This document shows, piece after piece, positions 664-32,984 of a stretch of 33,732 bases of DNA; within the stretch, counting starts at the first letter, position 1; each line of letters starts with the position of its first letter. This DNA comes from Stramenopiles sp. TOSAG23-2 (taxonomy: Eukaryota): NCBI GenBank assembly GCA_900128395.1, contig LT649356.1, positions 1-33,732 on the forward strand. Reading direction: 5' to 3'. The notes below the pieces were generated by a model, which had not been told where the DNA came from, ran no database searches, and saw only the letters and a program-made list of their open reading frames with translations. Both the position numbers and the translations under genes were made by a program.

Positions 664-2574
664 ATGAATAGATTCATTATCGTATTAATAGCAATATGCA
701 TCTTTGCAATGTCAAGTACAGTTGCAAATGGTAATACAGAAGATGTACAACAACGACTGTTAAATGAAAGAGCAACACTGAGTCCACGTAGAAATCCTAT
801 GGCTGCTATGTTGAAATCGAAAACCGGAAAAGCAAATACCAACACTGGTGGTGAACAATGTGATGAAGAAAAAAGCCGCTTGCAAGGTGAGATCGATTCA
901 TTACGTGCAGAAGTGAAAGATTTGAAAGAAAAAGCGGAAACAAAAGAAACAACAAAAGATGCATTACAAGATAATAAACCATCTCCACCACGTATGTGTT
1001 GTAAAGCTATGACAAAAGCATGTCTTGCATGTTCAAAAGGTGTCTCTGTAGAGGAATTTTGTAAAACTAATGGAGGAAAATTTGGCTGTCCTAGAAAATT
1101 AATCAAACCATCGCCACCACCACGTATGTGCTGCATGGCTATGACTGCTAATTGTATTGCATGTTCAAGAGGTGTATCAGTAGAGGAACTATGTAAAGAC
1201 GCAGAAAATCGAGTACCAGGCTGCCCAAAACCTACTACAACAAAACCAGATGATGATGGAAAAAAAGAAAAAACACAAAAAGAAGAGGAAGAGGAAGTTA
1301 AATGTGATACAAAACAAGAAAAATGTTGTAAATCACAATTTAGTCCAAAATGCATGGCATGCCGTACACGTAACAGGGTAAATCTTTTAAAGGCACAATT
1401 ATGTGAAAAAACAAAAGGAGAAAAACCAGCAGGTGAAAAAGATGATGATGATAAGGCAGGTGAACATGATGATGAGAATCCAGATGATAATGAAGATGCA
1501 GATCCATCTTTGGAAGAACCGGAAAAACCAAAACGCCCATCAAAATTTGATGGACCATGTATGTTCGAAGGAAAAGAAGATAAAGATGCGCCATTTTGCC
1601 ACGATTATGATCGTATGTGGGGTATGCCAAGTGATTACAACCCCGAAAAAAAAGAAAGAGATTTTTCTCTTTTACAAACAAGTGAAAAAGTTGGTGAAGC
1701 CAAAGATATTAAATGGGTTGTTGATTTAGTGAAAAAAATTGAAACGGCATATCCGTATGATAATTGGAAAACATTAGCAACACGTTTACGTAAAATAGTA
1801 TACTTTGGTAAATTATGGGATATGCTTATCCCGAAAGCAAAGAAAACGGGTGTATTAGCAGTGAAAGGTGAATGTACGCAAGAGGTCATTAATTCATTAA
1901 CCACACCAAATTTAAATGTACGAGATCCTACTGGACAACAAATTGATTTAAACCATGTATGGGTTGGTATTGATGTGGCAAATTTCCCTGCTACAAATTT
2001 ATTAGTTAGAATCTTCGGTGGTTTAAAAGGCCCTGCAGTTGCAACATGGGCTGGTGATGTTGGTAGTGTATTAGGTGAATTTTATTATAAAACACAAGGC
2101 GAAGGCGATATCAATCGTTACTATGAAATCATGTCTGGTGATGATGATATGTATTCAAATGCTGATGGGTATGGTATTGCATTACAAAAATTACCATCCG
2201 GAAGCCGTAATTGGAAATTATCACAAAGAATTGAACATTATTACCAAACCAATATTCATAAACGTGTAACATACATGATGGATGCATCTGGACTTGCATT
2301 TAAAAAGAAAGGGCGTAAGAAAGGTCAATTGACATGGAATGCAAAGCGTAAGATTAGAGCACAGATTCGTAGATTCGCTAAGCTTTGGAGAATTCATCAA
2401 TGTCCTCATGGTTGGAAGAAATGTTTAATTCCAACTTCAAAAGACCCATTGCACCAAAAACCGAAGACAGTACATACGGCAAAAATGGGCAAAACATATT
2501 TAAAATCAGAACGTGATTATGTCATTGATAAATTTATTAAATGGGTTGAAGATCATTTAAAAAAAGAAATATAG
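664..2574 (+). CDS. Secreted multidomain protein (~636 aa): signal peptide, coiled coil, Cys-rich repeats, acidic linker, C-terminal globular domain
   Basis: Long ORF. The likely start is ATG 664 (MNRFIIVLIAICIFAMSSTVANG, a signal peptide) rather than TTG 562, which would translate the GT microsatellite. Confidence 0.85.
   Translation: MNRFIIVLIAICIFAMSSTVANGNTEDVQQRLLNERATLSPRRNPMAAMLKSKTGKANTNTGGEQCDEEKSRLQGEIDSLRAEVKDLKEKAETKETTKDALQDNKPSPPRMCCKAMTKACLACSKGVSVEEFCKTNGGKFGCPRKLIKPSPPPRMCCMAMTANCIACSRGVSVEELCKDAENRVPGCPKPTTTKPDDDGKKEKTQKEEEEEVKCDTKQEKCCKSQFSPKCMACRTRNRVNLLKAQLCEKTKGEKPAGEKDDDDKAGEHDDENPDDNEDADPSLEEPEKPKRPSKFDGPCMFEGKEDKDAPFCHDYDRMWGMPSDYNPEKKERDFSLLQTSEKVGEAKDIKWVVDLVKKIETAYPYDNWKTLATRLRKIVYFGKLWDMLIPKAKKTGVLAVKGECTQEVINSLTTPNLNVRDPTGQQIDLNHVWVGIDVANFPATNLLVRIFGGLKGPAVATWAGDVGSVLGEFYYKTQGEGDINRYYEIMSGDDDMYSNADGYGIALQKLPSGSRNWKLSQRIEHYYQTNIHKRVTYMMDASGLAFKKKGRKKGQLTWNAKRKIRAQIRRFAKLWRIHQCPHGWKKCLIPTSKDPLHQKPKTVHTAKMGKTYLKSERDYVIDKFIKWVEDHLKKEI
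976..1227 (+). repeat. Two tandem Cys-rich coding repeats (976-1092 and 1105-1227)
   Basis: KPSPPRMCCKAMTKACLACSKGVSVEEFCK...GCP and KPSPPPRMCCMAMTANCIACSRGVSVEELCK...GCP are similar at DNA level too. A degenerate third copy (CCKSQFSPKCMAC) lies at about 1321-1362. Confidence 0.9.
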
Positions 2575-14041: not shown

Positions 14042-17000
14042 TTAATATTTGTAAACAGTGTTTTCATTAGTACACGAGCGCGGATCGCAAAGAACAAATA
14101 CTCTATCATGCCTAGACAATATCATTTCTGGTTTTGGGTTAGTAACTATGTACGGTAATGGTGCAGTGTGTGTAAACGGCGAGCGATAAACACCAAGCGG
14201 CAAAATTCGTAATTTCATTACTAAATACGTATACAAAACATGGTATTCTTGCTTATCAAAAATTCGTGGAACTTTAATTTGAATTAATGCATCGCATTCA
14301 CGGTAATGGTGCAAAGGCCTTTCTTTCTCTGGATGCAAAATGTTATTTAACTCTGTACTATATATCAAACGTGTTAACAATGCCATTACCGATTCGTTGT
14401 AATAAATTTGACAGACAACAGAATCAATGTCACATAGGTACACTTGACCACTACAGTATTGTGGCCACGCACACGAAGGATCATCGCTGCTTGGCCGATG
14501 CTTCAAGAATGCCATAGATTGTTCATCAAGCATCTCAGCAATGATTCGACAATTAAACTCTTCTTCAATGATACATGATGTAAATATAGTTGCAGTGTCG
14601 CGTATTCTTGTCCCCATATTTTTTGCTGCCGCTTGCGTTGGATCCGAACGTACCACTACACAATGCGCACGTTCTACACCAGCATCTAGCAGAAATTGTG
14701 TCGAAAGGCCATTACCTTGTAATATGTATATATTCTTAAATTCATCAACGCATGATTGGATAACCGCTTCGTGGTCGTCAAACTCGTTGAGCAGAAGCAC
14801 TGGAATATGCGAGAAAAATCGTAAAACGGATAAAAAGCCTTTGATACCTTTCATACTGCCTACCAATATGCAATGCCCCGCCAAATCAGCTGGGGCTTTA
14901 TGCATGACATGCATTGGGTATATCCATGCATCCTTCTGTTGCTTAGAAAGTTTAGGAGAGGCCTTCCCCATTGTTTTCGTCATAGCTTCCTTTTTGGTAG
15001 CATCTTTTGTTTCAATTTCAACGGTTTTAGTTTCTAATTGCAATTTTGCTGAAGCCATTATACTATCGTTTAAAGACGCTCCATCCTTTGCGTTAAGATC
15101 ACTTAAATTACTTATAGATACCTTTCGTAACGGGGATTTTGCAACCGCATTTTGCTTCTTCTTCATTCTTAGCGATATTTCTGATTTATTTAATGGACGT
15201 TTGATTACTTTTGCAGGGGATAATTCCACAACGTTGTTTCCAACTTGCCTTGGCAAATTTTTAGATAGTAACTCTGGATCAGGTTCCATTTCTTTCGACC
15301 CGTCCCAGAAATTTACTATTTCAGCATCTTCATAGTCGTCAGCAACTAAAAAAGCCATATCACCTGAACGTATGTAATATCCTAAAGGATTCACTAATGT
15401 TATTCTCTTCACTTCCTTATCTTTCTTCGTCTGTTTTCCAGCTTTTCTTCGTACAACTCGATCTTCAACGGCAGATATTGCGAATAAACACACACCAAAT
15501 TCTCTAAACAATTCACAACTTGCCTGTTCAAATCGAACGTTTGTGAAATAAGATGAAAATGCTACGCAATATATTTCCTGACCAAATCCGTACAAATATT
15601 CTCTCATCCATGCTGACACTTCTTTGTCACCAATTTCCCATTCAGCGCTAGATTTCATCAAATTTGTTATTAGAGTGGAAAATCCAGGACAAACTACATT
15701 CCTAGCAAGCACAGCCGCTTCAAATTCCTCTAAACAAACAATGTGGTTCCATTTTGCCCAACCACCATGATTTTTGCTTTCAGTGGACAGCAGTTGAACG
15801 TAAACTGGTAATTTCGTTGGTCTAATATCTTTCATCGCTTTAATTGCCAGTATGGAGCAGGCATCAGATGCTGTTGGATCTACGGAATATTGATTTGATA
15901 AAACAAACACGGCTTTGCAGTCCATGAAAGCGCTACGCTTTAAATCACTCTCTACAAGGACGCTACCTTTCAGATACTCGACCCTAGATTCATAATAGGA
16001 GTCTGCCAACGCGGTTGCAAGCATTTCATCTGGTTCATAATGGCATAGGAAAACAATGATATCTTTAACATCCCCGTGGTCCTCATGAAAAAACTCTTTT
16101 AAAAACCTCATTGCTGCACGTGTATCTATATCGCCACAAACAAGGACATGTGGATTATTTGATGGATTGTTGTAACTGCCAGAATATTTGGAAGCCCTTG
16201 AACTCATATCAGTATATAGATTAAATTCAGGTGGCAAAGAAATTGTTAAGCTCAACACTACCCCCAACGTTAGCAATTGTGCCCATACTGTTTTAGGATG
16301 TACATCCCCATAACCAATTGTGGTTATTGTAATAAGTAATAAGTAGGCTGCATCCCAATAAGTGAAATGGCATATTGACTTCCAACCCATTTTTTTTGGA
16401 TGCCATTCGTTATATAAAGTGGCTTGTGGAAACATAGTAAAATAGTGACGATCTTCCAACTGAACAAACGAATAAAGATCTGTATATTCTACTTCACACT
16501 CGTCGTTTCTCCACGGTACAACAAACGAACCAGGTGATAGGAAGTTTTCATATGCATGTATCAAACCGGCACCTATAAACATACACATATAAAACAGGAA
16601 AAAAATCCTATAAAGTTGTTGGCGGACTTTGGTATGTGTCACTTCTGAGTCGTCAGACATAGTGGTTTTTACAACTAAACGCAATACCCTGTAAACGCGG
16701 GCTACACGAAAGACTCGCAAAAATATCAAGTATTGATATTGTGCAGGGTTTGCATAACCTAAAATTGGAATTATGGAAGCCATATCAAAAAGTGCATCCA
16801 TACCAAAGATATATTGTATTCTCGACTCTGAAATATACCAATGGAGTAAGTAGTCGAATATAAAAAAAAAAGACACAATGATTTCAATATAACAAATAGA
16901 TGTTGGCAAATATATCGCAGACTCAAGTAAGCTACATTCAACAACATACGTTAGAGTTGAAACGAAACTTACTATTATCTGAGCCAAGTCAAGAAGAAAT

Positions 17001-17305
17001 CCATTTTTAGAATTGTATACAAACTCTTTCATTGCTAGTCGGTTGATCTCCATCTTGCTAACAGTTTCCTTTTTATCCTTTTTCAAATCTTCTGGGAGCT
17101 CAAAATTTTCGTTTTCCATTGCATGTAACAACATATTCTTTTTATGCGCAGCTTTCAACTGAGACCGCCTTTTTTCAGAATTTATGTTTATCCTTTTAAC
17201 TCTGTTGTAGTCAAGTACGTTACGTGTATAACTAAGTTTCCGTTCAAGCGTCCTATCGACAGAGCCGCTTGCCCCTTTATGACCTGATGTTCTCGGGCCA
17301 AGCAT
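14042..17305 (-). CDS. BK/Slo-family K+ channel alpha subunit (6TM plus tandem RCK domains)
   Basis: S4 LRVFRVARVYRVLR (16679-16717), K+ filter TTIGYGD (16304-16324), RCK1 HVLVCG...FLKEFFHED, YLKGS...DLKR, CPGFSTLITNL, WMREYLYGFGQEIY, RCK2 GHCILVG and C-terminal YIVTNP...DRVFVL. Confidence 0.93.
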   Translation of the reverse strand: MLGPRTSGHKGASGSVDRTLERKLSYTRNVLDYNRVKRININSEKRRSQLKAAHKKNMLLHAMENENFELPEDLKKDKKETVSKMEINRLAMKEFVYNSKNGFLLDLAQIIVSFVSTLTYVVECSLLESAIYLPTSICYIEIIVSFFFIFDYLLHWYISESRIQYIFGMDALFDMASIIPILGYANPAQYQYLIFLRVFRVARVYRVLRLVVKTTMSDDSEVTHTKVRQQLYRIFFLFYMCMFIGAGLIHAYENFLSPGSFVVPWRNDECEVEYTDLYSFVQLEDRHYFTMFPQATLYNEWHPKKMGWKSICHFTYWDAAYLLLITITTIGYGDVHPKTVWAQLLTLGVVLSLTISLPPEFNLYTDMSSRASKYSGSYNNPSNNPHVLVCGDIDTRAAMRFLKEFFHEDHGDVKDIIVFLCHYEPDEMLATALADSYYESRVEYLKGSVLVESDLKRSAFMDCKAVFVLSNQYSVDPTASDACSILAIKAMKDIRPTKLPVYVQLLSTESKNHGGWAKWNHIVCLEEFEAAVLARNVVCPGFSTLITNLMKSSAEWEIGDKEVSAWMREYLYGFGQEIYCVAFSSYFTNVRFEQASCELFREFGVCLFAISAVEDRVVRRKAGKQTKKDKEVKRITLVNPLGYYIRSGDMAFLVADDYEDAEIVNFWDGSKEMEPDPELLSKNLPRQVGNNVVELSPAKVIKRPLNKSEISLRMKKKQNAVAKSPLRKVSISNLSDLNAKDGASLNDSIMASAKLQLETKTVEIETKDATKKEAMTKTMGKASPKLSKQQKDAWIYPMHVMHKAPADLAGHCILVGSMKGIKGFLSVLRFFSHIPVLLLNEFDDHEAVIQSCVDEFKNIYILQGNGLSTQFLLDAGVERAHCVVVRSDPTQAAAKNMGTRIRDTATIFTSCIIEEEFNCRIIAEMLDEQSMAFLKHRPSSDDPSCAWPQYCSGQVYLCDIDSVVCQIYYNESVMALLTRLIYSTELNNILHPEKERPLHHYRECDALIQIKVPRIFDKQEYHVLYTYLVMKLRILPLGVYRSPFTHTAPLPYIVTNPKPEMILSRHDRVFVLCDPRSCTNENTVYKY

Positions 17306-18206
17306 ATTCGCAATACAATTACCAAAGAAGTGTTTTTAAAATAAAAATAAAGACAGGTGGTTACGGGTTACAATTTTATGCAATTTAAATTGATACGATT
17401 ACTGCTCAAGAAAGATTCTGTACTTAGTAAATAAACAACTATTGCTAGTAAATTTTATGTATATTTCATTAAATAATACAGTTCATAGATCATTGATATT
17501 ATTTAATAATACAATGGCATGTGCAATAATAATAATAGTTAGTAGTTGTTGCTATTATAGTTTAGTTGCAATAATAACAACATTAAGAAGATAGCATGGG
17601 GATAGTATTAGGAATACACTGATACGTGCATAGCATAATATCCATAATGATGTGGCATCGTACATTTTCTGGTTATGGTGTTTTTATTTATTTGAATCGG
17701 GCCATCCAGCCATTCACATCATAGACTATATGAATACCAGGCATAAATACTGTTAAATACTTGCAATTAATTTAATGCAACTGTAGCACGGTTGATAATG
17801 ATATTTATGTAGTATAACAAAAAATAAATGACAATGAATAAAAGAGTTATCTTATATCCGTAAAGGTATTTTAGACTCATAAAATAGAGTAAAGGTAAGA
17901 AATAAATGGCACATCGGCACAAATCTTATCATCACCATAGAATGCAAATTGCAGATATGCAGATTAATACGTTGTTACGTTGTTACTAATCATTCCAGCA
18001 AACCTGGTATAATATTACGTATACAGGAATGCAGGAGTATCCATGGAATAAAAAGCCTGGAAAGCCTGGGTGCCTATATGGAAAGCCAGAAAGCACCACC
18101 AAAAAAAAAATAATGATAATAGTAGTAGTATAGTAGTATCTAGCTATTATACAATGTATTACTATATAATAATGAAATAATATATATATAACTTATATAT
18201 ATATAT

Positions 18207-18238
18207 ATGTATGTTAGCCTGATGTATGTTAGCCTGAT
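18207..18238. repeat. 15-bp tandem duplication (ATGTATGTTAGCCTG x2) in the BK/Cav intergenic region
   Basis: Read directly from the sequence. Confidence 0.9.
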
Positions 18239-18424
18239 TAGTTTTAATTGCAGATTATATATAATATATATCTATACCAGTTAATAAAGTTACAAATACG
18301 AGAGTTTAGAGACGGCAGCTTTTGATTATCAAACCTGTTTAATTATTTCCAAATATACAGAAGAGTATAAGCTTATCTTGTTTAATTTACCAAGCTTTAG
18401 TAAAAACTGTCAATAGTAGTATCT

Positions 18425-21400
18425 ATGATGTCGGGAACTCAAGAAAAAGACATAGACTGGGAGCTTATTTTAAGTCTTTTAATAGAAGAAGCTGTTGGTG
18501 AAGATGTTTCTCGTAATCTAGGTGTGTTTAAGCAGGAGAACATAGATGGAGTAAAACGAGTGTTTTCGAAAGAATTGGATGCAATTAAAGATCTAAAAAG
18601 GGAATCTTCGCGAATGTTAGAAACTTCTGAATTTTCCCACCACAGTCTTGCACCATTGCGAAAAATGCAGGAGGATATAGATGACGTTAGAGACGAAATA
18701 AAACTTCTTAGTCGTAAAGAAGAAATGAAAATCAATGTAGCTAAAGTTTCAGACATTAATCCAGAGTTGCTATTTGATATCCAAGATGCAGACATGAAGG
18801 AAGAGACCCAAAATTATAATGCTAGACGCATGTTGTATGAGGCCAACGTAGATAGACTTACCAAGACTGAACAGGAACTAGGAGAAGGAAAATGGATTAG
18901 TTATGAGGCAACTATGTCAAACGTAGAAGAGTGCATGAATTGCCCCAACAAAATAAAAAAATATACAAATGACTTGATATCAAATTGGTATTTTGACAAA
19001 TTTATTCTAATCGCAATTATTTGCAACTGCATCACGTTAGCTTTGGATAATCCACAAAATACAGGCACGGAACTGGCCAAATTTATAGCAGTTATTGATT
19101 ATGTTTTTATAGGAATATTTGTTATAGAAATGGGATTGAAAATTACAGCATTAGGGTTCGTGAAAGAAGACAACTCATATCTTAGCGATCCATGGAATGT
19201 ATTGGATTTTATAATAGTCATGACAGGATTGTTAGCAATTTTGTTAGAAATTCTAGAATCCCCCACATCCAACGTAAGTGCGTTTAGGGCATTCAGAGTT
19301 TTAAGACCTTTGCGAACAATTACTCAATTTCCTGGCTTGCGTGTGCTAGTAAATGCAGTGCTTGAATCTTTAACCTTGCTAGGTAATACCATCGTTATTA
19401 TGTTTTTTTTCTTTATTGTCATGGGCATAGCTGGACTTCAAATGTTTAAAGGGATGCTGCATTATAGATGTTTCACGATGGTCAATGGTACATACGTAAT
19501 GGACCCTCGGGATGTAGACCCGGCTAGATTTTGCTCGGATGTAGAAAGGGAGTGTAATCCAGGATATGAGTGTTTAAAGCTCGGTACGAATCCACAAAAC
19601 GATGTCGTCTCATTTGACCATATCGGAGCAAGCATTATGAATCTATTCGTCTTCGTAACTTTAGAAGGTTGGTCAGATGTTATGTACTATTTATCAGATA
19701 CAGTTGGTCCAGCTATGGCTCTTTTCTTTTTTCTACCATTGATATTTATAGGTTCGTTCATATTGATTAATTTAACGCTCGCAGTTATTCTTTCTAGCTT
19801 CCGCCAATCAAAAGAAAGACAATATAAAGTCATTGAATCGAAACTAAAGCTCAATAAACGGCGTTCGGAGCTGCAACAAGTGCGAAGGTCGTTGTTAAAA
19901 ATGTCATCTGGCAAAGAGAACCCTGACAGTTTTAGCCCACAACGGGATCCTGAAAGTAAATGGAACAGTGTTAGAATAAAAATTAAAACAGCCCAAGCCC
20001 TTTCACAAGGGAAGTCTGCGGAAGCGAAACCGGTACAATTGTCAAGGCTAAAAAGGCTTAAAGCGTGTTTTAACAAGATGTGGAGCGATATGGTCTCTGC
20101 ACACCAAAATTTTAGGGCAAAGGTGACTGCACATAAATACTATGGGTGGTTCAATGGTTTCATCATTATTTGCATTATGTTAAATAGTATAGCATTTGCA
20201 ATAGAGCATCATAATATGCCGAAGGACTTGGAAGTCGTTTTAAATGCAATAAATTTAACATTTACATATATATTTATTGGTGAACTAGTTATCATGATGG
20301 TCATACACAATCCCTACAACTATGTAAGCGATTATTCAAGATGTTTTGATGGGTTTTTGGTTCTTACTAGTATTTTAAATTTAATTGTTGATAATATGAA
20401 TATCCAGGCAGATGCAGGGGCTAAAAGTATATTAGAAGCACTTGTCGTTTTTCGTGTTGCAAGGGCATTGCGTATTTTCCGTGTTGCAAGACAATTGAAA
20501 TCTATGGCCAACATTTTGGATGTCATGTCTCGAAGTATTAGTTCCTTCAGTTATATTTTTATCTTGCTTTTGCTTTTTATGTTTATTTTTACTATACTTG
20601 GAATGCAATTATTTTCCGGTTTCACGATGCCGAATCGGAACCAATTTAACGATTTTGGCCTCGCGTTTATAACAATTTTTCAAGTATTGACAGGGGAAAA
20701 TTGGAATGCATTATTAGAAGACTTTGCAGTAGCAGGAGGCCAACCTGGTACTATATTTCTTTTTTTCGTAGCATGGATTTTTGCCGGGCAATACATTTTA
20801 TTGAATTTAATTTTAGCAGTTATCATGGAACAGTTTGGGAACATGGAAGAAAAACAAGCGAAAAAAGACAAAGATTCCCCAGGTGGTGTGCGCAAGGCAC
20901 TCTCTAGATTAACGTCGTCATTTGGCACTTTTTCATCGTCCCCATTGGGCAAAAAGAAGGAGCTTACAGGGTTTAGAGCGAAACGATTATTTTGCTGTAA
21001 TCCAAAGGGTATAGTTGTTAAAAAAGCACAAGAAATTGCAAATAATAAAAATTTCGAGAATTTCATCTTGGTCATGATTATTTTAAGTAGTATTGTTTTG
21101 GCAGCGGAGGGGCCAACTGGCGAGGAACCTTCGGCGTTTTTGAACGTAATTGATATTCTGTTTAATATCATATTTATAGGTGAAGCTCTTGTAAAAATCA
21201 TTGCGATGGGATTTATTTTGCCTAAAAAATCATACCTTCGTGACAATTGGAATATTTTAGATTTTATTATCGTTTTATCAGGCATTTTGACAATGATCTT
21301 AATGTCATTTCCAACTTCCGGGAATTCGGAAAATATTGGATTTATGAAAGTATTGAGGATGCTACGGGTCCTTCGCCCCCTTAAAACGATCTCACGATAT

Positions 21401-23569
21401 CGAGGTATGCAATTAGTTGTTAGATGTTTGATAGAATCCATGGCGTCTGTGGGAAATGTTTTGATAGTTGCATTTGTATTATTTTTTGCATTTGCAGTTG
21501 CTGGGTATGCGTTGTTTGGTGGTAAATTTTATTCATGCAATGATCCTGACTTTCCAGGCGGAACCAGCCGATATGGAGTAAAAAATGCCAGCAACGTAGC
21601 GACGACAGTAATATTAAATGGCACATCGGCGATTATTCCAGCAAATCCAAATTACATATGGATTGTCGAACCTTGTAGTTCTGGCTATTTTGCAAAAGAT
21701 GGGACGGAAAGAGCATGGGAGAACGCCGAATTCCATTTTGATAATTTCCCACAGTCGCTTATCACATTATTTGTTTTGTTCTCGCTTGAAGGGTGGCCAG
21801 ACATATTATGGCCAGCAATGGACGTTACAGATGTCGATGTTAGTCCTTCTGAAGGTGCTTTTGCGATGTTTGGATTTTCATATTTTTGCTTATTCATATT
21901 CTTAGCATCGATGCTTTTGTTGAATTTATTTACTGGTGTAATTTTTGAATCATATTTGCAACAAAATAGAGCCATGAAAACAGAAGGTATCTCAATCTTT
22001 ATTACGCCCGAACAGCAAGAATGGATTGATAAAATGAAAGTGTACATGAATGCAAAAAAGCCGCCTCAAAAGTTTGACCCACCGGAACACCCGTTGCGAT
22101 TTAAAGTGTATAACATTGTGACGAATTCAAAGTTCGACACTCTCATTTATGTGTTCATCATTTCAAATTTAATTCAACAAGCTTCTACGTGGGAGGGAGA
22201 GCCGGAAGCTTGGACAACTGGAAGTACTTATCTATCATATTTCTTTACTTTTGCTTTCTTTGTCGAAGCAGTTATGAAGATATATGGTTTGGGCTGGAAA
22301 CCATATTGGTCTGATGGATGGAACAAATTTGATTTTGTATTGGTTACATTTTCATTTCTTGATCTCGGGATGACATTCGTTTCTCTAAATTTTTCATTTT
22401 TTCGCGTCCTCCGTGTCGGACGAGTTATTGGCCGCATATTACGTATAATACGAGTTTCGCGAGTAGCTCGATTAGCAAAAGCGTTTTCAGGATTAAGAAC
22501 GATTTCCTCTACACTTGCAATGTCATTTTTTTCCTTGATTAACATTGTTACATTGTTGTTCCTAGTATATTTCATATATGCTGTTTTAGGCGTCAAAACG
22601 TTTGGCGCCATCAAAGAAGGTGCACATGGATTCATAAACGAACAAAGAAATTTTAATAACTTTGGGAGTGCAATGTTATTTACAATTGTTATCAGCACTG
22701 GCGAAAGTTGGAATGGGGTGATGTATGATGCGATGAAAAGCGGGAATTTAATGGCAGTTGTCTACTTTTTCACATTTATTATTTTAGCTCAACTAGTCAT
22801 GATGAATTTGTTTATCATGATCATTGTCGAAAATTTTGATAATTTAAATTCGAAAGAAGATAATGGAGAGCTCGAATTCGACACTATATTCAAAGCCGTG
22901 TGGGAATTGTTTGATCCAGAAGGTACTGGAAAGATGCTTATGGTAGACTTGGAGGAGTTTTTAAAACGGCTTCCAAATCATTATGGTTTACGGCGCGACG
23001 CAACCAATTCTCAGTTACTTAGAATATTGCAAGAGCTGGAACTGCACGTTTGGGAGGTGCCGAATTCTGATTATCGCGATGAAATTGATAAAATGATAGA
23101 TTTCAAAGAGCTGCTTGTTGCTTTGCATAGACGAATACGTCATATTGATATAAATGACAGCGTTTTAGGCACTCTTAAAGTAACACCGATCGATGTGAAA
23201 TCATCCATTCTAGAGAACGCTACTTCGAAAGGTGTATTTGGAGGTAAGACCAAGAAAAAGAATTTACCAACAATAGGAATGGGAACCGTTAGTCATGAAT
23301 TTGCAGTACGTTCCATTACTCGGATATTCCGCAAATGGCGAAGATATCACGGCAATGAAAGGTCGAGATCGCCAGTACCTGAAATTGAAGGCATCAAAAG
23401 TCCAACAAAGAAAATATTAATAATAAATAATTCATTATTAGAGGAGCATAATTTAGTTGGCGAATTGAGCACAGAAATTACTGAAATTGAAGGCAGACTT
23501 GGCAGTAGTTCCCCAGGAAGAAGAACCTCTAATTCTCGTTCAAGATCAAACAGTTTTACAAGCAGGTAG
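18425..23569 (+). CDS. Four-domain voltage-gated cation channel alpha-1 subunit with EEEE (Ca2+-type) filter
   Basis: Four 6TM repeats with Arg-rich S4s. Pore motifs are TLEGW (E codon at 19664), TGENW (20696), SLEGW (21788) and TGESW (22703). C-terminal EF-hand-like WELFDPEGTG and IQ-like AVRSITRIFRKWR. Intronless, 1714 aa. Confidence 0.95.
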   Translation: MMSGTQEKDIDWELILSLLIEEAVGEDVSRNLGVFKQENIDGVKRVFSKELDAIKDLKRESSRMLETSEFSHHSLAPLRKMQEDIDDVRDEIKLLSRKEEMKINVAKVSDINPELLFDIQDADMKEETQNYNARRMLYEANVDRLTKTEQELGEGKWISYEATMSNVEECMNCPNKIKKYTNDLISNWYFDKFILIAIICNCITLALDNPQNTGTELAKFIAVIDYVFIGIFVIEMGLKITALGFVKEDNSYLSDPWNVLDFIIVMTGLLAILLEILESPTSNVSAFRAFRVLRPLRTITQFPGLRVLVNAVLESLTLLGNTIVIMFFFFIVMGIAGLQMFKGMLHYRCFTMVNGTYVMDPRDVDPARFCSDVERECNPGYECLKLGTNPQNDVVSFDHIGASIMNLFVFVTLEGWSDVMYYLSDTVGPAMALFFFLPLIFIGSFILINLTLAVILSSFRQSKERQYKVIESKLKLNKRRSELQQVRRSLLKMSSGKENPDSFSPQRDPESKWNSVRIKIKTAQALSQGKSAEAKPVQLSRLKRLKACFNKMWSDMVSAHQNFRAKVTAHKYYGWFNGFIIICIMLNSIAFAIEHHNMPKDLEVVLNAINLTFTYIFIGELVIMMVIHNPYNYVSDYSRCFDGFLVLTSILNLIVDNMNIQADAGAKSILEALVVFRVARALRIFRVARQLKSMANILDVMSRSISSFSYIFILLLLFMFIFTILGMQLFSGFTMPNRNQFNDFGLAFITIFQVLTGENWNALLEDFAVAGGQPGTIFLFFVAWIFAGQYILLNLILAVIMEQFGNMEEKQAKKDKDSPGGVRKALSRLTSSFGTFSSSPLGKKKELTGFRAKRLFCCNPKGIVVKKAQEIANNKNFENFILVMIILSSIVLAAEGPTGEEPSAFLNVIDILFNIIFIGEALVKIIAMGFILPKKSYLRDNWNILDFIIVLSGILTMILMSFPTSGNSENIGFMKVLRMLRVLRPLKTISRYRGMQLVVRCLIESMASVGNVLIVAFVLFFAFAVAGYALFGGKFYSCNDPDFPGGTSRYGVKNASNVATTVILNGTSAIIPANPNYIWIVEPCSSGYFAKDGTERAWENAEFHFDNFPQSLITLFVLFSLEGWPDILWPAMDVTDVDVSPSEGAFAMFGFSYFCLFIFLASMLLLNLFTGVIFESYLQQNRAMKTEGISIFITPEQQEWIDKMKVYMNAKKPPQKFDPPEHPLRFKVYNIVTNSKFDTLIYVFIISNLIQQASTWEGEPEAWTTGSTYLSYFFTFAFFVEAVMKIYGLGWKPYWSDGWNKFDFVLVTFSFLDLGMTFVSLNFSFFRVLRVGRVIGRILRIIRVSRVARLAKAFSGLRTISSTLAMSFFSLINIVTLLFLVYFIYAVLGVKTFGAIKEGAHGFINEQRNFNNFGSAMLFTIVISTGESWNGVMYDAMKSGNLMAVVYFFTFIILAQLVMMNLFIMIIVENFDNLNSKEDNGELEFDTIFKAVWELFDPEGTGKMLMVDLEEFLKRLPNHYGLRRDATNSQLLRILQELELHVWEVPNSDYRDEIDKMIDFKELLVALHRRIRHIDINDSVLGTLKVTPIDVKSSILENATSKGVFGGKTKKKNLPTIGMGTVSHEFAVRSITRIFRKWRRYHGNERSRSPVPEIEGIKSPTKKILIINNSLLEEHNLVGELSTEITEIEGRLGSSSPGRRTSNSRSRSNSFTSR

Positions 23570-23871
23570 ATCGCGTAGGCATAAATTATTACCGAGTATG
23601 CATAGGAAGGCGGAGAATAAAATCTACTACGCGTAAATATATATATTTTTTTATTATATTATCATATCATACGCTTCGCGTATCATATCATATCATACGA
23701 TTATTGTACGTGTGTAATACGTATACTACGTTCGTATTTTTTTAGTTTTTACTCATGATTAATTCTCTACTCAGCCCAAAATTTTTTTTATTTTTTAAAA
23801 CTTTTTTAATGCGTTTGTGTAAAATTGTGTATGATAGTTGTTCTTTTTTATAAATTTGTCAAATCCCTTTC

Positions 23872-25599
23872 TCATTGCGCTTGATACCTTTTCCTAGCTT
23901 TCACCCATTCGTTACCGCCCTTCACGGGACCACTGTTACTTGTTTTCTCGTTCTTTTTTTCATTTACAACTGAGTCAAGTGACATATTTTTCGGGACAAC
24001 CTGTGCAAAAAGCTGCTGTCGTCTATAAAACATGAGACCAAAAGCAGAAAGGGAAAACCACGATAACAGTGACCAGAATATTAAAAATCCAATAATAGGA
24101 CGGTACGTATTTGACGTAAAAATACCAGTAGAAGTGATTTCTTTGACCCAATCTGTAATTCGCTTAGCCTCATCATTTTCACCAACGAATAAATTAAGTA
24201 AACCTCTTTTATTATCTTTCGTTGAGGAACCACTTGATGAATTAAAAAGGGCATGCTCTGTTCCGACGTTTTCCCAACCCACTTGCTCTTTTAAAAGATG
24301 CTGAATATTATTGCAAATGTGCAAATTATAATTTCCCTTACGGTGTAATAAAAGTGTTAATGCAAGGTTAAATATGATAGGACCGCAATATTGAACACCT
24401 ACAACGCACACACGCCAAAATATTTGCTTTACACCATAACTGATACGATTGGTCATTGCTTTGTCAATATTACTAACAGTATGCATAATCTCATTTACTT
24501 GAGTCTTTGCTTCTTCCAAATGTGCTTGTAAATATTTGCGTAGTAAATATAAGCTTAAAAAACTAGAGAATAGCAAGAAATATGTACGACCCGCATAAAA
24601 GATTGACTCAGTAATAAAAAAATATCCTTCCGGTGGAAAGCTCCTGCAATCTCGAATTAATTCATCTGCATTGCATGCTACCAATCCCCGTGTTAATATG
24701 AAGTCAGTCGTTAATGGTGGAATCCAGCATAGAGATAAAAACAATGGCGCAAAATATGTTATTTGTAAAGCAGCATTTAATAAAAATCCGTTTTGATCGG
24801 AATCAACCATTTCATTATAATATTTCGACATTCGTAATGCCGGTAAGACGTAACTACTTGATATGATACCGCATGTAATTGCTAGTATTAAACGTATATA
24901 AACAGCATCGATTAAATCATCAACAACTTTTTCCTCTGGTGTTGCTACAGCAAGATACAGTTGCTTCACATTTTTATTCAGCTCAGGCATCGCTAAATCC
25001 AAACGGAAATCTATTACTGTTGGGGGTAAATTTAAAGCACCAAATGCAACAATACTGCTGAAAACGCCTATAATAATTGCCATTTGTGTATCAAAATGTT
25101 TCACACTTCGTTTACTCAATAATTTAATATTTAACGAGATACCAACATATGCCATGAAACATAACAATATCGTACTTAGATCTAAATTAACTGGTGCCGT
25201 ATCTAAGCACTTTATTATATTTGAAACAGAATATACCATCAATGCTTGAATTGTCAATACAAAAATCCATTGCAAATCTTGCAGAACTAAAAAGTGTTTT
25301 GCATATTCAGGAAAATTTTCAGTTGAAATTTTATCTTGGAATAAAACAAACGAATCCAAACGTTTTGACGTTAAATATTCTTTTTCTTTCTCTGCTTGTT
25401 TCTTCTTCTTTTTTGCACTTGGTTTTCTTTGATGCTGTTTTGGCATTTTAATACCATCTACTTGCTCTAAGTCAGGAGGTAAGTAATAATTCAACCCAAG
25501 TAATACATATGAAACAGGGTCGATTAGTAATCCTAATACTTTAGTTGATAAATACAAAACTAATAGTTCAGCTATGGTACTATACGCGAACACGGCCAT
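23872..25599 (-). CDS. TMEM161: TMEM161-family multipass membrane protein
   Basis: N-terminal hydrophobic segment then LNYYLPP, about 8 TM segments, and family-like motifs LPALRMSKYY, LRKYLQAHL, CVVGVQYCGP and IIGFLIFWS. Confidence 0.8.
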   Translation of the reverse strand: MAVFAYSTIAELLVLYLSTKVLGLLIDPVSYVLLGLNYYLPPDLEQVDGIKMPKQHQRKPSAKKKKKQAEKEKEYLTSKRLDSFVLFQDKISTENFPEYAKHFLVLQDLQWIFVLTIQALMVYSVSNIIKCLDTAPVNLDLSTILLCFMAYVGISLNIKLLSKRSVKHFDTQMAIIIGVFSSIVAFGALNLPPTVIDFRLDLAMPELNKNVKQLYLAVATPEEKVVDDLIDAVYIRLILAITCGIISSSYVLPALRMSKYYNEMVDSDQNGFLLNAALQITYFAPLFLSLCWIPPLTTDFILTRGLVACNADELIRDCRSFPPEGYFFITESIFYAGRTYFLLFSSFLSLYLLRKYLQAHLEEAKTQVNEIMHTVSNIDKAMTNRISYGVKQIFWRVCVVGVQYCGPIIFNLALTLLLHRKGNYNLHICNNIQHLLKEQVGWENVGTEHALFNSSSGSSTKDNKRGLLNLFVGENDEAKRITDWVKEITSTGIFTSNTYRPIIGFLIFWSLLSWFSLSAFGLMFYRRQQLFAQVVPKNMSLDSVVNEKKNEKTSNSGPVKGGNEWVKARKRYQAQ

Positions 25600-26199: not shown

Positions 26200-27389
26200 T
26201 CACATACCTCTGATTTCTTTATTTTCCCTTGCTTTTCTACTGATTTCAAAACGTTTTGGCCAATTTTTGCAATTATATGGGACGGCACATGGATTTCCTT
26301 CTATGCAACTACAATTTGCACTATCATCACCAGCTCCACTTGTTGCACCAAACGCATCGTTATCATTTGATGAGAATTGTTTATTACTTAAAGTTTTCAT
26401 TGAATGGGAATATTCATAATGATTAAATTTTTTTAATGAACCAAATTTCATTGCAAGTTTTAAACACCACTCTGTATCAACATCAGTTAAATCTGGATTC
26501 CCATTTTCCGCTGCTGATTTCAACGTGCAGGGATTGCCATATATACATAATGATTTAATACGTTTACATTTTTTCATATCCTCCATCGTTTTCCGCATTT
26601 TAATATCATTGTTTCCAATATTTAATTCTTCAAGCGTATTTAAAAGTGTTGACATATGATCAATTAAACCACCACCATCTGAAGCATCCATAGAACCTAA
26701 TTCACATTGTTCCAATCGTAAAATGCGTAAATGTTTACATGTTGCAAATGTTTTTTTGGTATTTTCATTGAATTGTTTAAATGGATTATATGATAAATCC
26801 AAAACTAGCAATAAAGGCAAATGCGATAAATCAGGGAAGTCTAATATTTTGTTACCAGCAGCAATGATTTCTCTTAAGAAAACTCCATTTATTTTATTTA
26901 TTGAAGGGCTTGTGAAGCAATTATCGGTTATATTTAATGCAATTATTTGATTTTGCATGTTGCGGTTCATGATTAATTCAAATATATCTGAACTTTGGCA
27001 TGAAATCCGTTGTTTTCTTAAAAGAGCTTGTTCAAGATCTACACTTGAACCAATATCAGCACTGATATTATTGTTATTATCCATGACCACATATTTATTA
27101 TTGTTAATATCATTGTTCATATTGTTCTTATTATTTGGATCCTCATTCTTATCCTCCACAATAACATTGGTATTATTATTTATTCTATTATTTATGCCAC
27201 CTTCGTCATTTAAATTAAGCTGTTCAAGTTTTTCATTCTCTTCTTCTTCCACCTTTTTAGCCTTTTCCATTTCAGATGCTGCTAGGTCTGCTGCTAGTTT
27301 TAATCGTTTAATTTCATGTTCTTCTGCAATTGTCCATAGATCAAACAACATACCCGATGACAATATATTTGTGTTTTTGTTGTTCGCAA

Positions 27390-27440
<51 letters not shown>

Positions 27441-27741
27441 CTATGCGAAACCAGTAATCAATATTTTTTAATAATTCATTATATTGATCTGCAGGAGATG
27501 CTTTACCCCCATACGGACTTTCTAGTGTTTTCCAAGGATCAATTAACGGGATCTCTTCCACAACAGGTTCTGGTGGTGATACCTTTTTTTTTACAACTTT
27601 TGATTTTTTTACATTATTTTTATTATTTGTTTTTTTTACAACATATTTACTCGTACCACCTGCATTGTTTTTCTTCTTTCCTTTTTTATTATTACCATTA
27701 GTATTATACTTTCCTTTTTTTTTCTTTTTTCCACTACTCAT
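26200..27741 (-). CDS. LRR protein (SDS22-like) with Lys-rich N-terminus, poly-Asn tract and C-terminal Cys motif
   Basis: LRRs LNITDNCF, IIAAGNKI, LDLSYNPF, LRLEQCEL, LNIGNNDI and an LRR cap LCIYGNPC. Tail CSCIEGNPCAVPYNCKNWPKRF. Confidence 0.82.
27391..27438. repeat. (ATT)16 microsatellite encoding poly-Asn on the minus strand
   Basis: Read directly; matches the N16 run in the 513-aa ORF. Confidence 0.93.
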
Positions 27742-28229
27742 ATCTCACATATGTATATCTAATATATATTCCAGTACCATTCTATTCTTGTTCTATATTT
27801 GTTTAGATATAATTGCGTGTGAATTGACCACGACACACACACACACATTTATTTTTTGGTTTCTATGATACTAATAACGGTTTGCCAGTTTGGTGCCGCG
27901 CGCCAACTCACTGAACTCACATCATTTCCACTAAGGTTAGTGTGGTGGTTTTTTTTTTGGTTGCTTTTTTTTTCTCAATACTAGGACATATAGGAGGTAT
28001 TAATATCTTTAAGTACAATAATCATTACTGTGTATAATTGTTGTGCTAAGGGCTTAAGTTGCGTTTCTTTTTTCCCATTTTTCCATTTAGTGAATTTAGA
28101 CAGTAGTGGGGGAGGACGGGAGGAAGCAAAACAACAGAGGGAGATTTCTCTCTACTATAACTATGTTATTATAATGTAAATATAATAATAATAATATTTT
28201 AATATTAAGTTATAATTACTATATAATTC

Positions 28230-28976
28230 AAATACATTTCGCGTAGGGGTGATTTTGGGGGAGTATACGATGGTCCATACTTAAACCGAATTCTGATATG
28301 GTATTTTCCTATATGATTTTGGAGTCTAAGAAATCGTACCACTCCGTTCCTGAAGTCGGTTGCATTGGGGCAGGAGAGAAGGGTCGAAAAAAATGTCAAA
28401 AAAAAATTTTCCGCGTTGTGCCACATATATCAGGAGAGGATAGCATGTCCCACAGTTATGTGGTGAATGAACAATTTTTTCCACAAAAATAGCGTTTTTT
28501 TGTAAATCGGGATGATAGAGAAAATGTGTTTTACATACTTAAATCGTCTAAAATTAATATATTTTTTCTTTGTTAATAGTGTTAAGACATGTTGTATACA
28601 TTTTTTGTACCGAAAATGGAATTATCTTTAGCTAAATGTCAGTAGTAGATAGGTTTTGTGTTAAGGAGATGCAAGAAATTGTAGAAAAAAGTGGATAGAA
28701 ATTAGAAAAAATACCAAGATATTGAAATAACCGCAACAATTGGCAAAAAATTACAAGAAACCGTGGATTTTGTAAATTAAGTAACAATAATTTAATAGTG
28801 AATAGTGTATTTTTAATATTTAAGGATACCAGACGATTTAGAACACAGCTGATAGAAATTAGAACAAGTATTTATATGAATAACAACATAAAATTAATGT
28901 ACGACGCCGGCCACCCAAAATGATTGCAATTACTTCCTCCTTATTTCGAACATTTGCCGGCGGCGTTAGCCCCTAG
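28230..28976. mobile_element. Candidate non-autonomous repeat or transposon remnant (boundaries uncertain)
   Basis: No credible ORF. It has an inverted repeat (28540-28549/28831-28840), a direct repeat (28694-28707/28851-28864) and a GC-rich inverted repeat (28901-28911/28956-28966) just before CTAG|T. Confidence 0.25.
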
Positions 28977-29570
28977 TATATATAAATTAACAGATATATC
29001 TTCTATGGTTTAGAAAAATGTGAGAAACATATATACTAACAAGTATAAGATAGTAGTGATGTATAGCAGGTGAATACTACGCACCAGGTTTTTGAACCAA
29101 AGAAAAAATTTTCTGAAATCATCGGTCACAACTTTTTAAAAATATATATTAAGTATATATATTTTTATACTAAGATTCCTATTGATTCCTATTTGATTTT
29201 TCCTTGTTGCCTTGTGTATACGAATGCACGAATGCATGTGCATATATTGAATAATAATATATGTATACATGACAGATTTATGTGAACACCTTGACGAATC
29301 ATGATATTAGTATATATATATGTATAAAAGAATTTCTTTTTTTTTTTATCTGTGTGGTGGTGGTGAATAATCTTAATCATCTTCTATTTCATCGTTTAGT
29401 GTTTTCAGTAGGTATATTCATACATATATATATATATATATATTTGTACGTAAGGTACAGATTATATATTAGACATATAGCTAGATTGATTTAACTAGGT
29501 ATCATTTAATTTTGGTTTACATTCAAATTTATCCAATATATACACACATTATTTTTATATAAATAAAAAA

Positions 29571-30470
29571 ATGAAACTATTGATTTCTCCAACATTCATT
29601 GCATTATTATGCAATATCATAACTATTGCAATGGTAAATGGGAGAAATTGTACCGTTCATGATGTTGGAAAAGATATTATACATTGGAATGCTGGTTTAC
29701 ATGTTATGGAATGGGATATTAAAGATTGTACTCGATTAGTTGCAAGGCATTTGAAATTAAATGATACTCATATTGTACCATTAGCGGAACATCTTGAAGG
29801 AAATAAAATATTACAACATATTGATTTAGGACATAATCATATGAGAGATGGCAGTGCAATTGCATTTGCAAAAGTGTTGGAACATCGACATACTGCACTG
29901 GAACGTTTGAATTTGGAAGGTAATGATATTGGATGTGGCGGGATCAAAGCATTAGCACATGCATTGAAAGAAAATGTGAATTTAAAAATGTTAGAACTTG
30001 GACGTAATCATATTCATCCAGATGGGGCTAAAGCATTAGCACAAGCTATACGAATTAATCATGTCTTGCGTGAATTAGACATTGAACATAATGCTTTTGG
30101 TGTCGAAGGTGCTGTAAAAATCGCAGAAGCGTTAAGATATAATCGACATATTGAAACAGTAAATTTAGCATATAACAGGATCAATGAACATGGTGCGCAA
30201 GCCATTGCATCTATGTTGCGTGTGAACAAAGGTTTGAAATCATTATTGATAGGTGGTAATGCTATCGGTGATCATGGAATGCATTTACTTGAACGAGCAA
30301 TGAAGCATAATAAAGTTTTGACTAATATTGATTTACATCATAACAATGCGCATCATGAAGCTACTTTAAAAATAGCATTACAAGTTGCGCGTAATATACG
30401 TGATGCAAATAAAGCTGCAGAAGAAGCTGCTAGTATTGGTAATGATGATTCTGTAAAATCGGAGTTGTAA
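29571..30470 (+). CDS. Signal-peptide-bearing, His-rich RI-like LRR protein with C-terminal KSEL
   Basis: Signal peptide MKLLISPTFIALLCNIITIAMVNG, then about 7 repeats of 28 aa (L..LNLEGNDIG..G...LA.AL..N..L); ends VKSEL-stop. Confidence 0.9.
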   Translation: MKLLISPTFIALLCNIITIAMVNGRNCTVHDVGKDIIHWNAGLHVMEWDIKDCTRLVARHLKLNDTHIVPLAEHLEGNKILQHIDLGHNHMRDGSAIAFAKVLEHRHTALERLNLEGNDIGCGGIKALAHALKENVNLKMLELGRNHIHPDGAKALAQAIRINHVLRELDIEHNAFGVEGAVKIAEALRYNRHIETVNLAYNRINEHGAQAIASMLRVNKGLKSLLIGGNAIGDHGMHLLERAMKHNKVLTNIDLHHNNAHHEATLKIALQVARNIRDANKAAEEAASIGNDDSVKSEL

Positions 30471-31243: not shown

Positions 31244-32984
31244 ATGTTGCAAGAAGAAGATGAAAATAAAAAGGCAAAAGAAGATGAGGTACCTGAAGGT
31301 AAACTAGCCAAAGCTATGTATTACTGGAAAAAAATAAGCCATAGCTTGCCATATCATATTATTCAATCATTATTATCATACCTTGCATTGATAACGATGA
31401 TTGTTGCGTTGACAGTTCTCATGTTCCCACCACATTTTGCTCCAAAAATATATGATGGTGGAAAAGATTTATCAATACCCGCAGCTACAAGAATTTTTAA
31501 CCTTGTCCACGCAGCAAGAGAAAAGCCCGAGCTTCAAAATAGCACGACGTACAGATTTGCCGCTCAGAATGGTAAATATGGCCTGCGTGTCTGTACCGAT
31601 CTTACTGAAGAACAATTCGAGAAAGCAACCACCTTGGTTGAAACGGATAGAATGTGGGATAACATGGATTATTCAGCAATTGCAAAATTCAAAAAAAATA
31701 AATGCGAGAATAGCACTATGTTGTCTTATAATTCTAACTGCAACATGCGTAGTGACGATGGCGTGTTGAAGGGAGGAGCATATTATTCGATAAAAAATTC
31801 ACAAACGGCTTACCCAAATCGTGCAAGTGTAACATCATTTCCAGGAAAAGGACAATGTGGAATGCCTGCATCGTGGGGGGGTAAAGGAAACCTTCTGTTC
31901 ACACGACCAGATCCAGGTTATGGTTGGCTTTGGACAATGATGATTCGTGACCCAAATAAAGGATTCCCATTTAAATTCGGTGGATTTCCTGAAGACGAAA
32001 ACAGAACGCATCCCAATTGTACTGAGACCATTTGCAATAAACAAGGTAGTAAATGCGATTCGAATAAGGGACAGGTTTGTTATGATGAAGACTTGGAGGA
32101 ATGCCTGTCAGCTAGCGAATTAAAAGAAGACAGGAAAACATGCAGTGGCCCTACAATGACCAATTGTACATGTAGTTCATATTATGGTAAGTTTAACTTA
32201 AACATGTATCCATATAAACATAATTATTTTCTCTAACACGTATATACATATATACATAATTTTTTTAGAATTCATTCCTGGCGAACCAGAGTGGTATAAG
32301 AAAGGAGTTGAGTTTAAAAACGAAGAGTGTCAGTACGGTTTTGGACCACTAGATGCAAATGAACAAATTTGGAAAAAACAGAGAGCAGATGCAGAACCAT
32401 GTTTGAAGAAGTATGTATTTGGATATGGTTATACAAATAAAGCTATTACCGCCTTGTTCATTATAGGTGCTATTTTACGCATTGGAAATCAAATAATGTC
32501 ATTTTATTGGGGCTGCACAGAGGACGATGAAGATTACAAAGTATTATTTACAACGGAAACATTTGTTCGTATATATTCAATTTGCACCAAAGGTTTAGAC
32601 TATGTGAATAACGTAATTGATACTAAATGGCAAACTGGTTGGCCGTGGATGATTGGATTTTTTGATTCAGCGTTTGTAGCACTTGCTACACTTGGGTGTG
32701 CTATCGGCGCAGACCCGTTCCCTGACTTGATAAAGGGAAGAACTACAATGTTCTTTCTATGGATATCAGCAATACGTGAATGCCTGAAACTACTATACAA
32801 GATTTACAGTGCAAAAACAAAGAAGCCATGGATTATCCAAGAAAAATCTGAAAATGTTGAATGTTGTGGTAAAACGATTCCATGGTGTGGCCCTGTAAAA
32901 GAACCAGAAGATGACGAGGGACCAGAGGAGGAAGATAAGGGAACAGTTGATCCGGATCAGATTGAATTGGGAGAAAAAAAATGA
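31244..32984 (+). CDS. Two-exon multipass membrane protein (~552 aa) with a large Cys-rich loop; join(31244..32186,32269..32984)
   Basis: Removing the intron joins the 330-aa and 193-aa ORFs in frame (...SSYY-E-FIPGEPEWYKKG...EPCLKKYVFG). One N-terminal TM segment, a Cys/N-glycosylation-site-rich loop and about 3 C-terminal TM segments. Confidence 0.85.
32187..32268 (+). other. 82-nt phase-1 spliceosomal intron
   Basis: G|GTAAGT donor, CTCTAAC branch point at 32231-32237 and TTTTTTAG| acceptor; splicing restores the reading frame. Confidence 0.88.

Follow-up and report, generated by a model that had tools for sequence, protein, structure and literature searches.

A Slo-family K+ channel gene, a Cav-like channel gene and a TMEM161 gene in a stramenopile contig: neighbours probably by incidental adjacency

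Introduction

When the genes for a K+ channel and a Cav-like channel stand head to head in a unicellular eukaryote, with a third membrane protein gene next to them, does the arrangement record a functional unit, or is it incidental? The question is raised by contig LT649356.1 of Stramenopiles sp. TOSAG23-2 (assembly GCA_900128395.1), of which the stretch analysed here, 33,732 nucleotides long, is referred to as the window. It holds a Slo-family K+ channel gene, a gene for a four-domain Cav-like channel with glutamate at all four pore sites (EEEE), and a gene of the TMEM161 family that converges on the latter. A previous sequence-only reading of this DNA had proposed that the three form a co-regulated depolarisation/repolarisation module and hint at an ancient TMEM161-channel link, with the caveat that the adjacency might be due to chance. 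Our analysis supports the caveat as the better reading: we suggest that these are probably three separately transcribed, intron-less genes, ordinary members of their families, whose adjacency is incidental. The features concerned are the following.

14042-17305, minus strand: Slo-family K+ channel gene, 1087 amino acids (aa), recognised by Pfam
17306-18424, no strand: divergent (head-to-head) intergenic region, Slo start codon to Cav start codon, 1119 bp, GC 0.283
18425-23569, plus strand: four-domain EEEE Cav-like cation channel gene, 1714 aa, recognised by Pfam
23570-23871, no strand: convergent (tail-to-tail) gap, Cav stop codon to TMEM161 stop codon, 302 bp
23872-25599, minus strand: TMEM161 family multi-pass membrane protein gene, 575 aa, recognised by Pfam

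Results

Spacing and intergenic DNA

All three open reading frames (ORFs) were confirmed at these coordinates under the standard genetic code, and with them the 1119 bp between the head-to-head channel genes and the 302 bp across which TMEM161 converges on Cav, both as originally described. The divergent gaps within the window, where the other divergent pairs are HSF-DAK and LRR-LRR, measure 1067, 1119 and 1829 bp, the convergent gaps 638, 627 and 302 bp (the Cav-TMEM161 gap being the smallest of the three), and the tandem gaps 259-773 bp. The Slo-Cav and Cav-TMEM161 gaps are thus of a size that is typical for the window.

The content of the divergent region at 17306-18424 is limited to short AT-rich repeats, two copies of GGAAAGCC, a count reached in 5 of 100 shuffles, and a tandem duplicate of 15 nt at 18207-18236. 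No Rfam family and no tRNA was found anywhere in the window, this region included. G/C-containing 10-mers common to the Slo-Cav gap and the region upstream of TMEM161 occur at 13.4 per Mb^2, while other region pairs gave 0-24.5, and the upstream regions showed no enrichment of shared 10-mers and no special repeat. By these measures, the intergenic DNA appears to hold no distinctive or shared element. Because Slo and Cav diverge over a common 1.1 kb of upstream DNA, some co-expression would be possible without selection; such passive co-expression via the common upstream region is the one regulatory effect of their position that seems likely.

The third-position GC of the two channel genes is the highest among the named genes of the window (Slo 0.326, Cav 0.339). 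Eight of the 11 other ORFs lie at 0.187-0.277 and the remaining three at 0.313-0.408, namely two family-less ORFs (0.31-0.32) and a doubtful 124-aa ORF (0.41). The high values of Slo and Cav may stem from low expression or weak codon bias, and are no evidence of co-regulation.

Relatives and conservation of the neighbours

Near-identical public counterparts (98-99% identity) were found for all three proteins: P0005 for Slo (98%), P0037 for Cav (99%) and P0001 for TMEM161, each of which represents 22-31 member sequences. Their contigs are single-gene contigs, 885, 423 and 178 nt longer than the coding sequence, respectively. Since they barely exceed the coding sequences, these contigs look like separate mRNAs, which points to repeated sampling of transcripts from a near-identical strain. 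More distant relatives are as follows.

Cav relatives: P0038, 73% identity; P0039 and P0040, 51% identity
TMEM161 relatives: P0002, 76% identity; P0003 and P0004, 66% identity
Slo relatives: P0006, 59% identity; P0007, 58% identity

At the level of the next relatives (51-59% identity), no longest contig is common to two of the Slo, Cav and TMEM161 clusters. Cav P0040 lies on a single JGI contig of 22,992 bp, a length that no JGI contig of the close Slo or TMEM161 clusters reaches. Conversely, no close Cav cluster is on a contig that matches those of Slo P0006 (29,118 bp) and P0007 (16,141 bp) in length, and the contigs of the Cav relatives (16,099 and 22,992 bp) carry no full-length TMEM161 relative. 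We drew an indirect test for kept linkage from the longest-contig sizes in the homologue tables, assuming orthology, intron-less genes, similar spacing and complete tables. With the Slo-Cav pair kept, a listable piece of the neighbour would be missed with a probability of 0.16 for P0040, 0.15 for P0006 and 0.30 for P0007 (joint 0.0075); with the Cav-TMEM161 pair kept, TMEM161 would be missed with a probability of 0.07 for P0040 and 0.11 for P0039 (joint 0.008). These values hint that the three genes are not side by side in the next relatives. Bacterial and archaeal contigs scanned with the Cav protein and a TMEM161 alignment yielded pattern matches and no relative.

The Slo-family channel

The K+ channel is matched in Pfam by Slo-like_RCK (3.6e-35, two stretches), BK_channel_a (2.5e-25), Ion_trans (3e-11) and Ion_trans_2 (7.8e-10), while TrkA_N (23.0 bits) and Slowpoke_C (19.9 bits) fall slightly below their cut-offs. 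Thirty distinct sequences of solved structures match at E<=1e-5, every one from the Slo family; BK alpha is the best (6nd0_A, 2.4e-45), and the matches include Slo2.2 (5u70_A, 1.3e-42) and the Slo3 gating ring (1.8e-18). The K+ selectivity filter, TTIGYGD, is at residue 328, and a tandem RCK1-RCK2 gating ring is present that aligns to the gating rings of BK and Slo2.2.

The protein had been read as a BK channel, and of this label the Slo family is the part that is borne out. Individual residues were checked in an alignment of the query with 10 homologues (11 sequences) and in a pairwise alignment to human BK (6nd0_A). With animal BK (Slo1, KCa1.1) alpha subunits the protein shares the TIGYGD filter, the order of voltage sensor and pore followed by RCK1-RCK2, and the residues of the RCK1 Ca2+ site, which we take to be H365, D367 and E535 in human numbering: the H-x-D and the E of GQEIY are kept in all 11 sequences as well as against human BK. 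Identity to the named animal BKs is ~23-31%. The acidic Ca2+ bowl is absent in both alignments, the region reading KHRPSSDDPS where Daphnia BK has DQDDDDDPD, with an acidic run in only one of the 11 sequences; the Mg2+-site Glu, presumably E374 in human BK, is replaced by Ile in the alignment to 6nd0_A; and S4, RVFRVARVYRVLRL, carries five Arg, one per third position, in a Kv-like pattern that is broken in the aligned animal BKs. Slo2.2 is a nearly equal match. Six hydrophobic segments were found between residues 104 and 357, and as the first of them (104-122) comes only after a hydrophilic N-terminus of ~100 residues, the extra S0 helix of BK is not seen, by a simple Kyte-Doolittle hydropathy scan only. 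Because the Ca2+ bowl is not acidic, S0 is not seen and S4 is Kv-like, the BK label is too specific; a better one would be a Slo-family channel, possibly Ca2+-sensitive via RCK1 only.

A channel of this kind could also be gated without Ca2+ altogether, responding to voltage alone or, in the manner of Slo2 and Slo3, to a different ligand. We regard this as possible, though less likely than not: the altered bowl, the Ile at the Mg2+ site, the regular spacing of the five Arg in S4 and the closeness of the Slo2.2 score to that of BK (1.3e-42 vs 2.4e-45) all point to it, and the logic of Ca2+ nanodomains would then be inapplicable even if both channels were in the same membrane. It is opposed by the equivalents of H365, D367 and E535, which are kept in the high-affinity Ca2+ site of RCK1; in animal BK, RCK1 by itself confers Ca2+ sensitivity.

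The four-domain channel

The assignment of the second protein to the EEEE four-domain channels was borne out. Pfam finds Ion_trans in four stretches (1.3e-213) and otherwise only PKD_channel. In the PDB, 64 distinct sequences match at E<=1e-20; among the 60 of these matches that are listed are Cav3.2 (4.8e-169), Cav1.2 (3.4e-166), Nav1.7 (1.6e-141) and NALCN (2.5e-71). In an alignment of the query with 12 homologues (13 sequences), which include the named L-type channels P0052 and P0059, the pore Glu of all four repeats (E414, E758, E1122 and E1427) line up with the pore Glu of these two channels, and Glu occupies all four sites in 13 of 13 sequences. S4-like R/K triplet runs are present in every repeat, starting at residues 288, 677, 975 and 1337. 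The C-terminal and linker domains of animal Cav, of the GPHH, IQ and Cav1/2 C-terminal kinds (PF16905, PF08763 and PF16885), which the animal homologues carry, were not found in the query by Pfam. Since Cav3.2, Cav1.2 and Nav1.7 score alike and the animal Cav domains are missing, we consider the protein, as far as its sequence can tell, to be an EEEE, Cav-like channel that is not the orthologue of any one animal Cav subfamily.

Four Ion_trans repeats, the EEEE pore and an R/K-rich S4 in every repeat are shared with animal Cav1/Cav2 and with protist FVCC clades, at no more than 33% identity to named relatives. E/E/E/E together with charged S4 is described as the dominant pattern in some ciliate FVCC subclades, and outside the choanoflagellates no evidence is reported that protist channels are closely related to metazoan Cav (PMC5824947). 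The named proteins nearest to the two channels come from ciliates, oomycetes, green algae and chromerids, at 24-33% identity; an amoebozoan source is unlikely, as no four-domain channels were found in that group (PMC5824947).

Each channel gene also contains a long antisense ORF, at 14541-15335 (plus strand, 264 aa) inside Slo and at 20680-21441 (minus strand, 253 aa) inside Cav. Their translations are of low complexity, and they are most likely by-products of the composition of the coding strand.

The TMEM161 protein

The TMEM161 identity was confirmed by a near full-length match to Tmemb_161AB (2.5e-48), in which residues 35-525 cover profile positions 35-481 of 485. The nearest clusters in the ESM Atlas are TMEM161B (0.96), and an exhaustive HMMER search returned 128 representatives at E<=1e-3, of which 38 reach E<=1e-10 and 4 reach E<=1e-30. 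Identity to distant homologues is 17-24%. An alignment of 64 sequences was assembled from the query, 3 close relatives and 60 of the 128 HMMER matches (the longer ones, with fragments dropped); in it, P253, R256, P285, W292, R338, L361 and P407 are near-invariant. The AlphaFold2 (AF2) model (pLDDT 87.9, pTM 0.87) shows about nine long helices, and a comparison with PDB folds gave no match at E<=1e-3, the best TM-score being 0.17. The protein is accordingly modelled as a membrane protein of ~9 helices, without a fold like that of a channel or an auxiliary subunit. When residues 1-540 of TMEM161 were paired with residues 1225-1480 of Cav (repeat IV), complex prediction gave a score of 0.00 against a mark of 0.34, which is evidence neither way.

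With TMEM161B, ERGU-1 and emei the protein has in common the full-length Tmemb_161AB match, the ~9 helices, the family-wide residues and a Q-Y motif. Q403-Y404 lies within Q-Y-x-x-P, and Y404, which is Tyr in 49 of the 64 aligned homologues, is a candidate for the equivalent of Tyr454 in the haem pocket of ERGU-1. In contrast to ERGU-1, none of the nine cysteines forms a CC, CXC or CXXC motif, the cysteine pairs that were the criterion leading to ERGU-1 (PMC13713018). Since the Q-Y-x-x-P motif is kept although the cysteine pairs are not there, a cysteine relay may not be an essential part of TMEM161 function, provided that the function is conserved across the family.

Published work gives the TMEM161 family a plan of nine transmembrane (TM) segments, places it in no known superfamily and finds it in single copy in most organisms, with homologues in plants and single-celled amoebae; TMEM161B is located partly in cilia and otherwise in the endoplasmic reticulum (ER) or diffuse membranes (PMC9942790). 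ERGU-1/TMEM161B is described as an ER-membrane protein and proposed transmembrane oxidoreductase that forms redox-dependent oligomers; a haem pocket containing a conserved Tyr was modelled for it, and redox defects are suggested by its authors to underlie the arrhythmia and brain phenotypes (PMC13713018). Effects of TMEM161B/ERGU-1 on currents may thus be indirect. Such effects are known from zebrafish grime (tmem161b) mutants, in which IKr and ICaL are raised and Ca2+ transients are larger; in addition, Ca2+ oscillations are disturbed in mouse Tmem161b knock-out cardiomyocytes, and cytosolic Ca2+ is raised in Drosophila emei mutants (PMC10290617). Embryophytes and amoebozoans are groups in which no four-domain channels were found (PMC5824947). 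Since TMEM161 proteins occur where such channels do not, the family cannot need them for its core role. We found no report in the literature, among the matches listed, of a physical interaction between TMEM161 and a Ca2+ channel.

The rest of the window

The window is AT-rich, with a GC of 0.28-0.39 per kb and an ORF GC of 0.30-0.40. It holds 13 long ORFs, none with evident introns; coding sequence makes up 70% of it, and all three standard stop codons are in use. It reads as a piece of a compact eukaryotic chromosome. An origin from a giant virus was considered and rejected in view of the 70% coding density, the intergenic gaps of 0.3-1.8 kb and the cellular genes TEX10, HSF, CDK and DAK. By Pfam, the ten other genes are unrelated to excitability: they encode a TEX10/Ipi1-like protein, a CDK, a dihydroxyacetone kinase (DAK), an HSF and two leucine-rich repeat (LRR) proteins, together with family-less ORFs.

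One of the LRR proteins (26200-27741, minus strand, 513 aa) has long Asn-rich tracts, with a tandem repeat of ATT (x16.7) at 27391-27440, and its C-terminal region holds LRRs of the SDS22 type (Pfam LRR_4, 2.2e-06). Its language-model neighbours include PPP1R42, U2A', dynein axonemal light chain 1 and LRRC23 (0.94-0.96), several of them ciliary, which we take as a lead only. The other (29571-30470, plus strand, 299 aa) has a hydrophobic N-terminus and RNI-type LRRs (LRR_6, 1.3e-19). LRR proteins serve as gamma subunits of BK (PMC8892010), and the latter protein was considered for this role and rejected, as no C-terminal TM segment is visible in its sequence and its gene is not adjacent to Slo. 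Between the two LRR genes lies the largest gap of the window (27742-29570, 1829 bp, divergent), in which the longest ATG-started ORF is at most 73 aa and no Rfam match was found; it may consist of long promoters, or harbour a non-coding RNA or a small or spliced gene that escaped recognition.

Further observations concern family-less ORFs. The protein of 664-2574 (plus strand, 636 aa) has a signal-like N-terminus, a Cys-rich motif that occurs twice (PSPPRMCC...CSxGVSVEE) and an acidic low-complexity stretch, and it matches no Pfam family at E<=0.01. The ORFs at 31244-32236 (plus strand, 330 aa) and 32496-32984 (plus strand, 162 aa) are separated by 259 bp, the shortest gap of the window, and may be a single gene with an intron or two small genes.

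Discussion

Several considerations weigh against incidental adjacency. If gene order were random, a genome would be expected to contain 0.0001-0.05 Slo-Cav neighbour pairs, calculated as 2bc/G (1-20 paralogues of each, 8,000-25,000 genes), so that this adjacency, had it been named beforehand, would be rare by chance. The pairing also matches a real physiological couple, the Ca2+ nanodomains that BK and Cav form in animals (PMC8795833, PMC5503510). Likewise, a link between TMEM161 and Ca2+ channels is not absurd in view of the raised ICaL and IKr after loss of Tmem161b, the raised Ca2+ of emei and the partial location in cilia. The argument from contig sizes is itself indirect, since the orthology of the 51-59% relatives is assumed; the mutual identities of the next-relative pairs (TMEM161 87.6%, Slo 67.4%, Cav 60.6%) fit no one species pair, and some of the relatives may therefore be paralogues. 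Finally, the closest relative (Cav P0038, 73%) may keep the Cav-TMEM161 pair: P0157, a 232-aa C-terminal TMEM161 fragment identical to the end of P0002 (the 76% relative), is what would be expected from a contig that ends just past a convergent Cav gene.

Could the two channel genes nevertheless be a selected module, in which a shared bidirectional promoter matches a Ca2+-entry channel with a repolarising K+ channel, for example in flagellar or feeding responses? We think this unlikely. The genes do diverge from one common upstream region of 1119 bp, the specific pair is rare by the calculation above, and both genes have a high third-position GC; the equivalents of D367 and E535 in RCK1 are kept in all 11 aligned Slo sequences, so that Slo could still be activated by Ca2+; and animal BK and Cav act as nanodomain pairs. 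The likeness to the nanodomains of animal excitable cells lies in the same two channel superfamilies, with Ca2+ entry feeding a repolarising K+ channel. Those nanodomains are, however, an association of proteins whose genes are unlinked, whereas here there is adjacency of genes only, and the Ca2+ sensor of Slo is degenerate, with a bowl that is not acidic and Ile in place of the Mg2+-site Glu. The gap is typical of the divergent pairs of the window, no special motif was found in it, and the longest contigs of P0006, P0007 and P0040 lack a close relative of the partner family. We found no report in the literature of K+ and Ca2+ channel genes head to head with a bidirectional promoter. The rarity of the specific pair moreover loses weight because the pair was picked after reading, from a scan of unknown size, and many other pairings would have looked meaningful; for channel-channel neighbours of any kind, the expectation is 0.03-11 pairs per genome (30-300 channel genes). 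A co-regulated depolarisation/repolarisation module thus finds no support in the gap sizes, which are ordinary, in the comparison of motifs, which gave no shared one, or in the contig-size data, which indirectly argue against kept linkage in the next relatives.

That TMEM161 is a dedicated partner of one or both channels, as an auxiliary subunit or a factor in their biogenesis or trafficking, with the adjacency recording an ancient link, seems to us very unlikely. In its favour, the fragment P0157, which fits a kept Cav-TMEM161 pair in the closest relative, stands together with the raised ICaL and IKr of the zebrafish heart, the disturbed mouse Ca2+ transients and raised cytosolic Ca2+ in emei (PMC10290617), and the partial ciliary localisation (PMC9942790). 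Against it, the orientation is convergent, which leaves Cav and TMEM161 without a common promoter, and neither of the contigs of the Cav relatives (16,099 and 22,992 bp) has a full-length TMEM161. The predicted fold resembles no known channel subunit in the PDB fold search, and reports of a physical interaction were lacking among the literature matches listed. The proposed ancient link is further weakened by the ER location and redox role of ERGU-1/TMEM161B (PMC13713018), with effects on currents that are possibly indirect, and by a family that extends to plants and amoebae (PMC9942790), in which four-domain channels were not found (PMC5824947). A combination of both ideas, in which selection maintains Slo and Cav as a bidirectional unit so that a flagellate makes its Ca2+-spike channel and the repolarising K+ channel in a set ratio, and TMEM161 is kept alongside as an ER or ciliary factor for Cav biogenesis, is very unlikely; if true, it would be the first genomic trace of the connection between TMEM161 and ICaL that is known from the vertebrate heart.

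We thus return to incidental adjacency of three ordinary genes as the likeliest reading, with roles that would follow from what is known of their families. Depolarisation would open the EEEE channel and let Ca2+ enter; the Slo channel would open with voltage, and possibly with Ca2+ via RCK1, and repolarise the membrane. TMEM161, in the ER or the ciliary membrane, would serve redox or Ca2+ homeostasis and touch the channel currents only indirectly.

Should the linkage turn out to be conserved, it would offer a way to test how TMEM161 proteins act on Ca2+ and K+ currents, and it would be a rare case of clustered ion-channel genes in eukaryotes. The present value of the locus is descriptive. The three proteins are most likely new members of known families. 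For a protist lineage known mainly from environmental sequence, they put on record a Slo-family channel whose voltage sensor is Kv-like and whose Ca2+ bowl is degenerate, a four-domain channel with an EEEE pore, and an orthologue of TMEM161 without the cysteine pairs by which ERGU-1 was defined.

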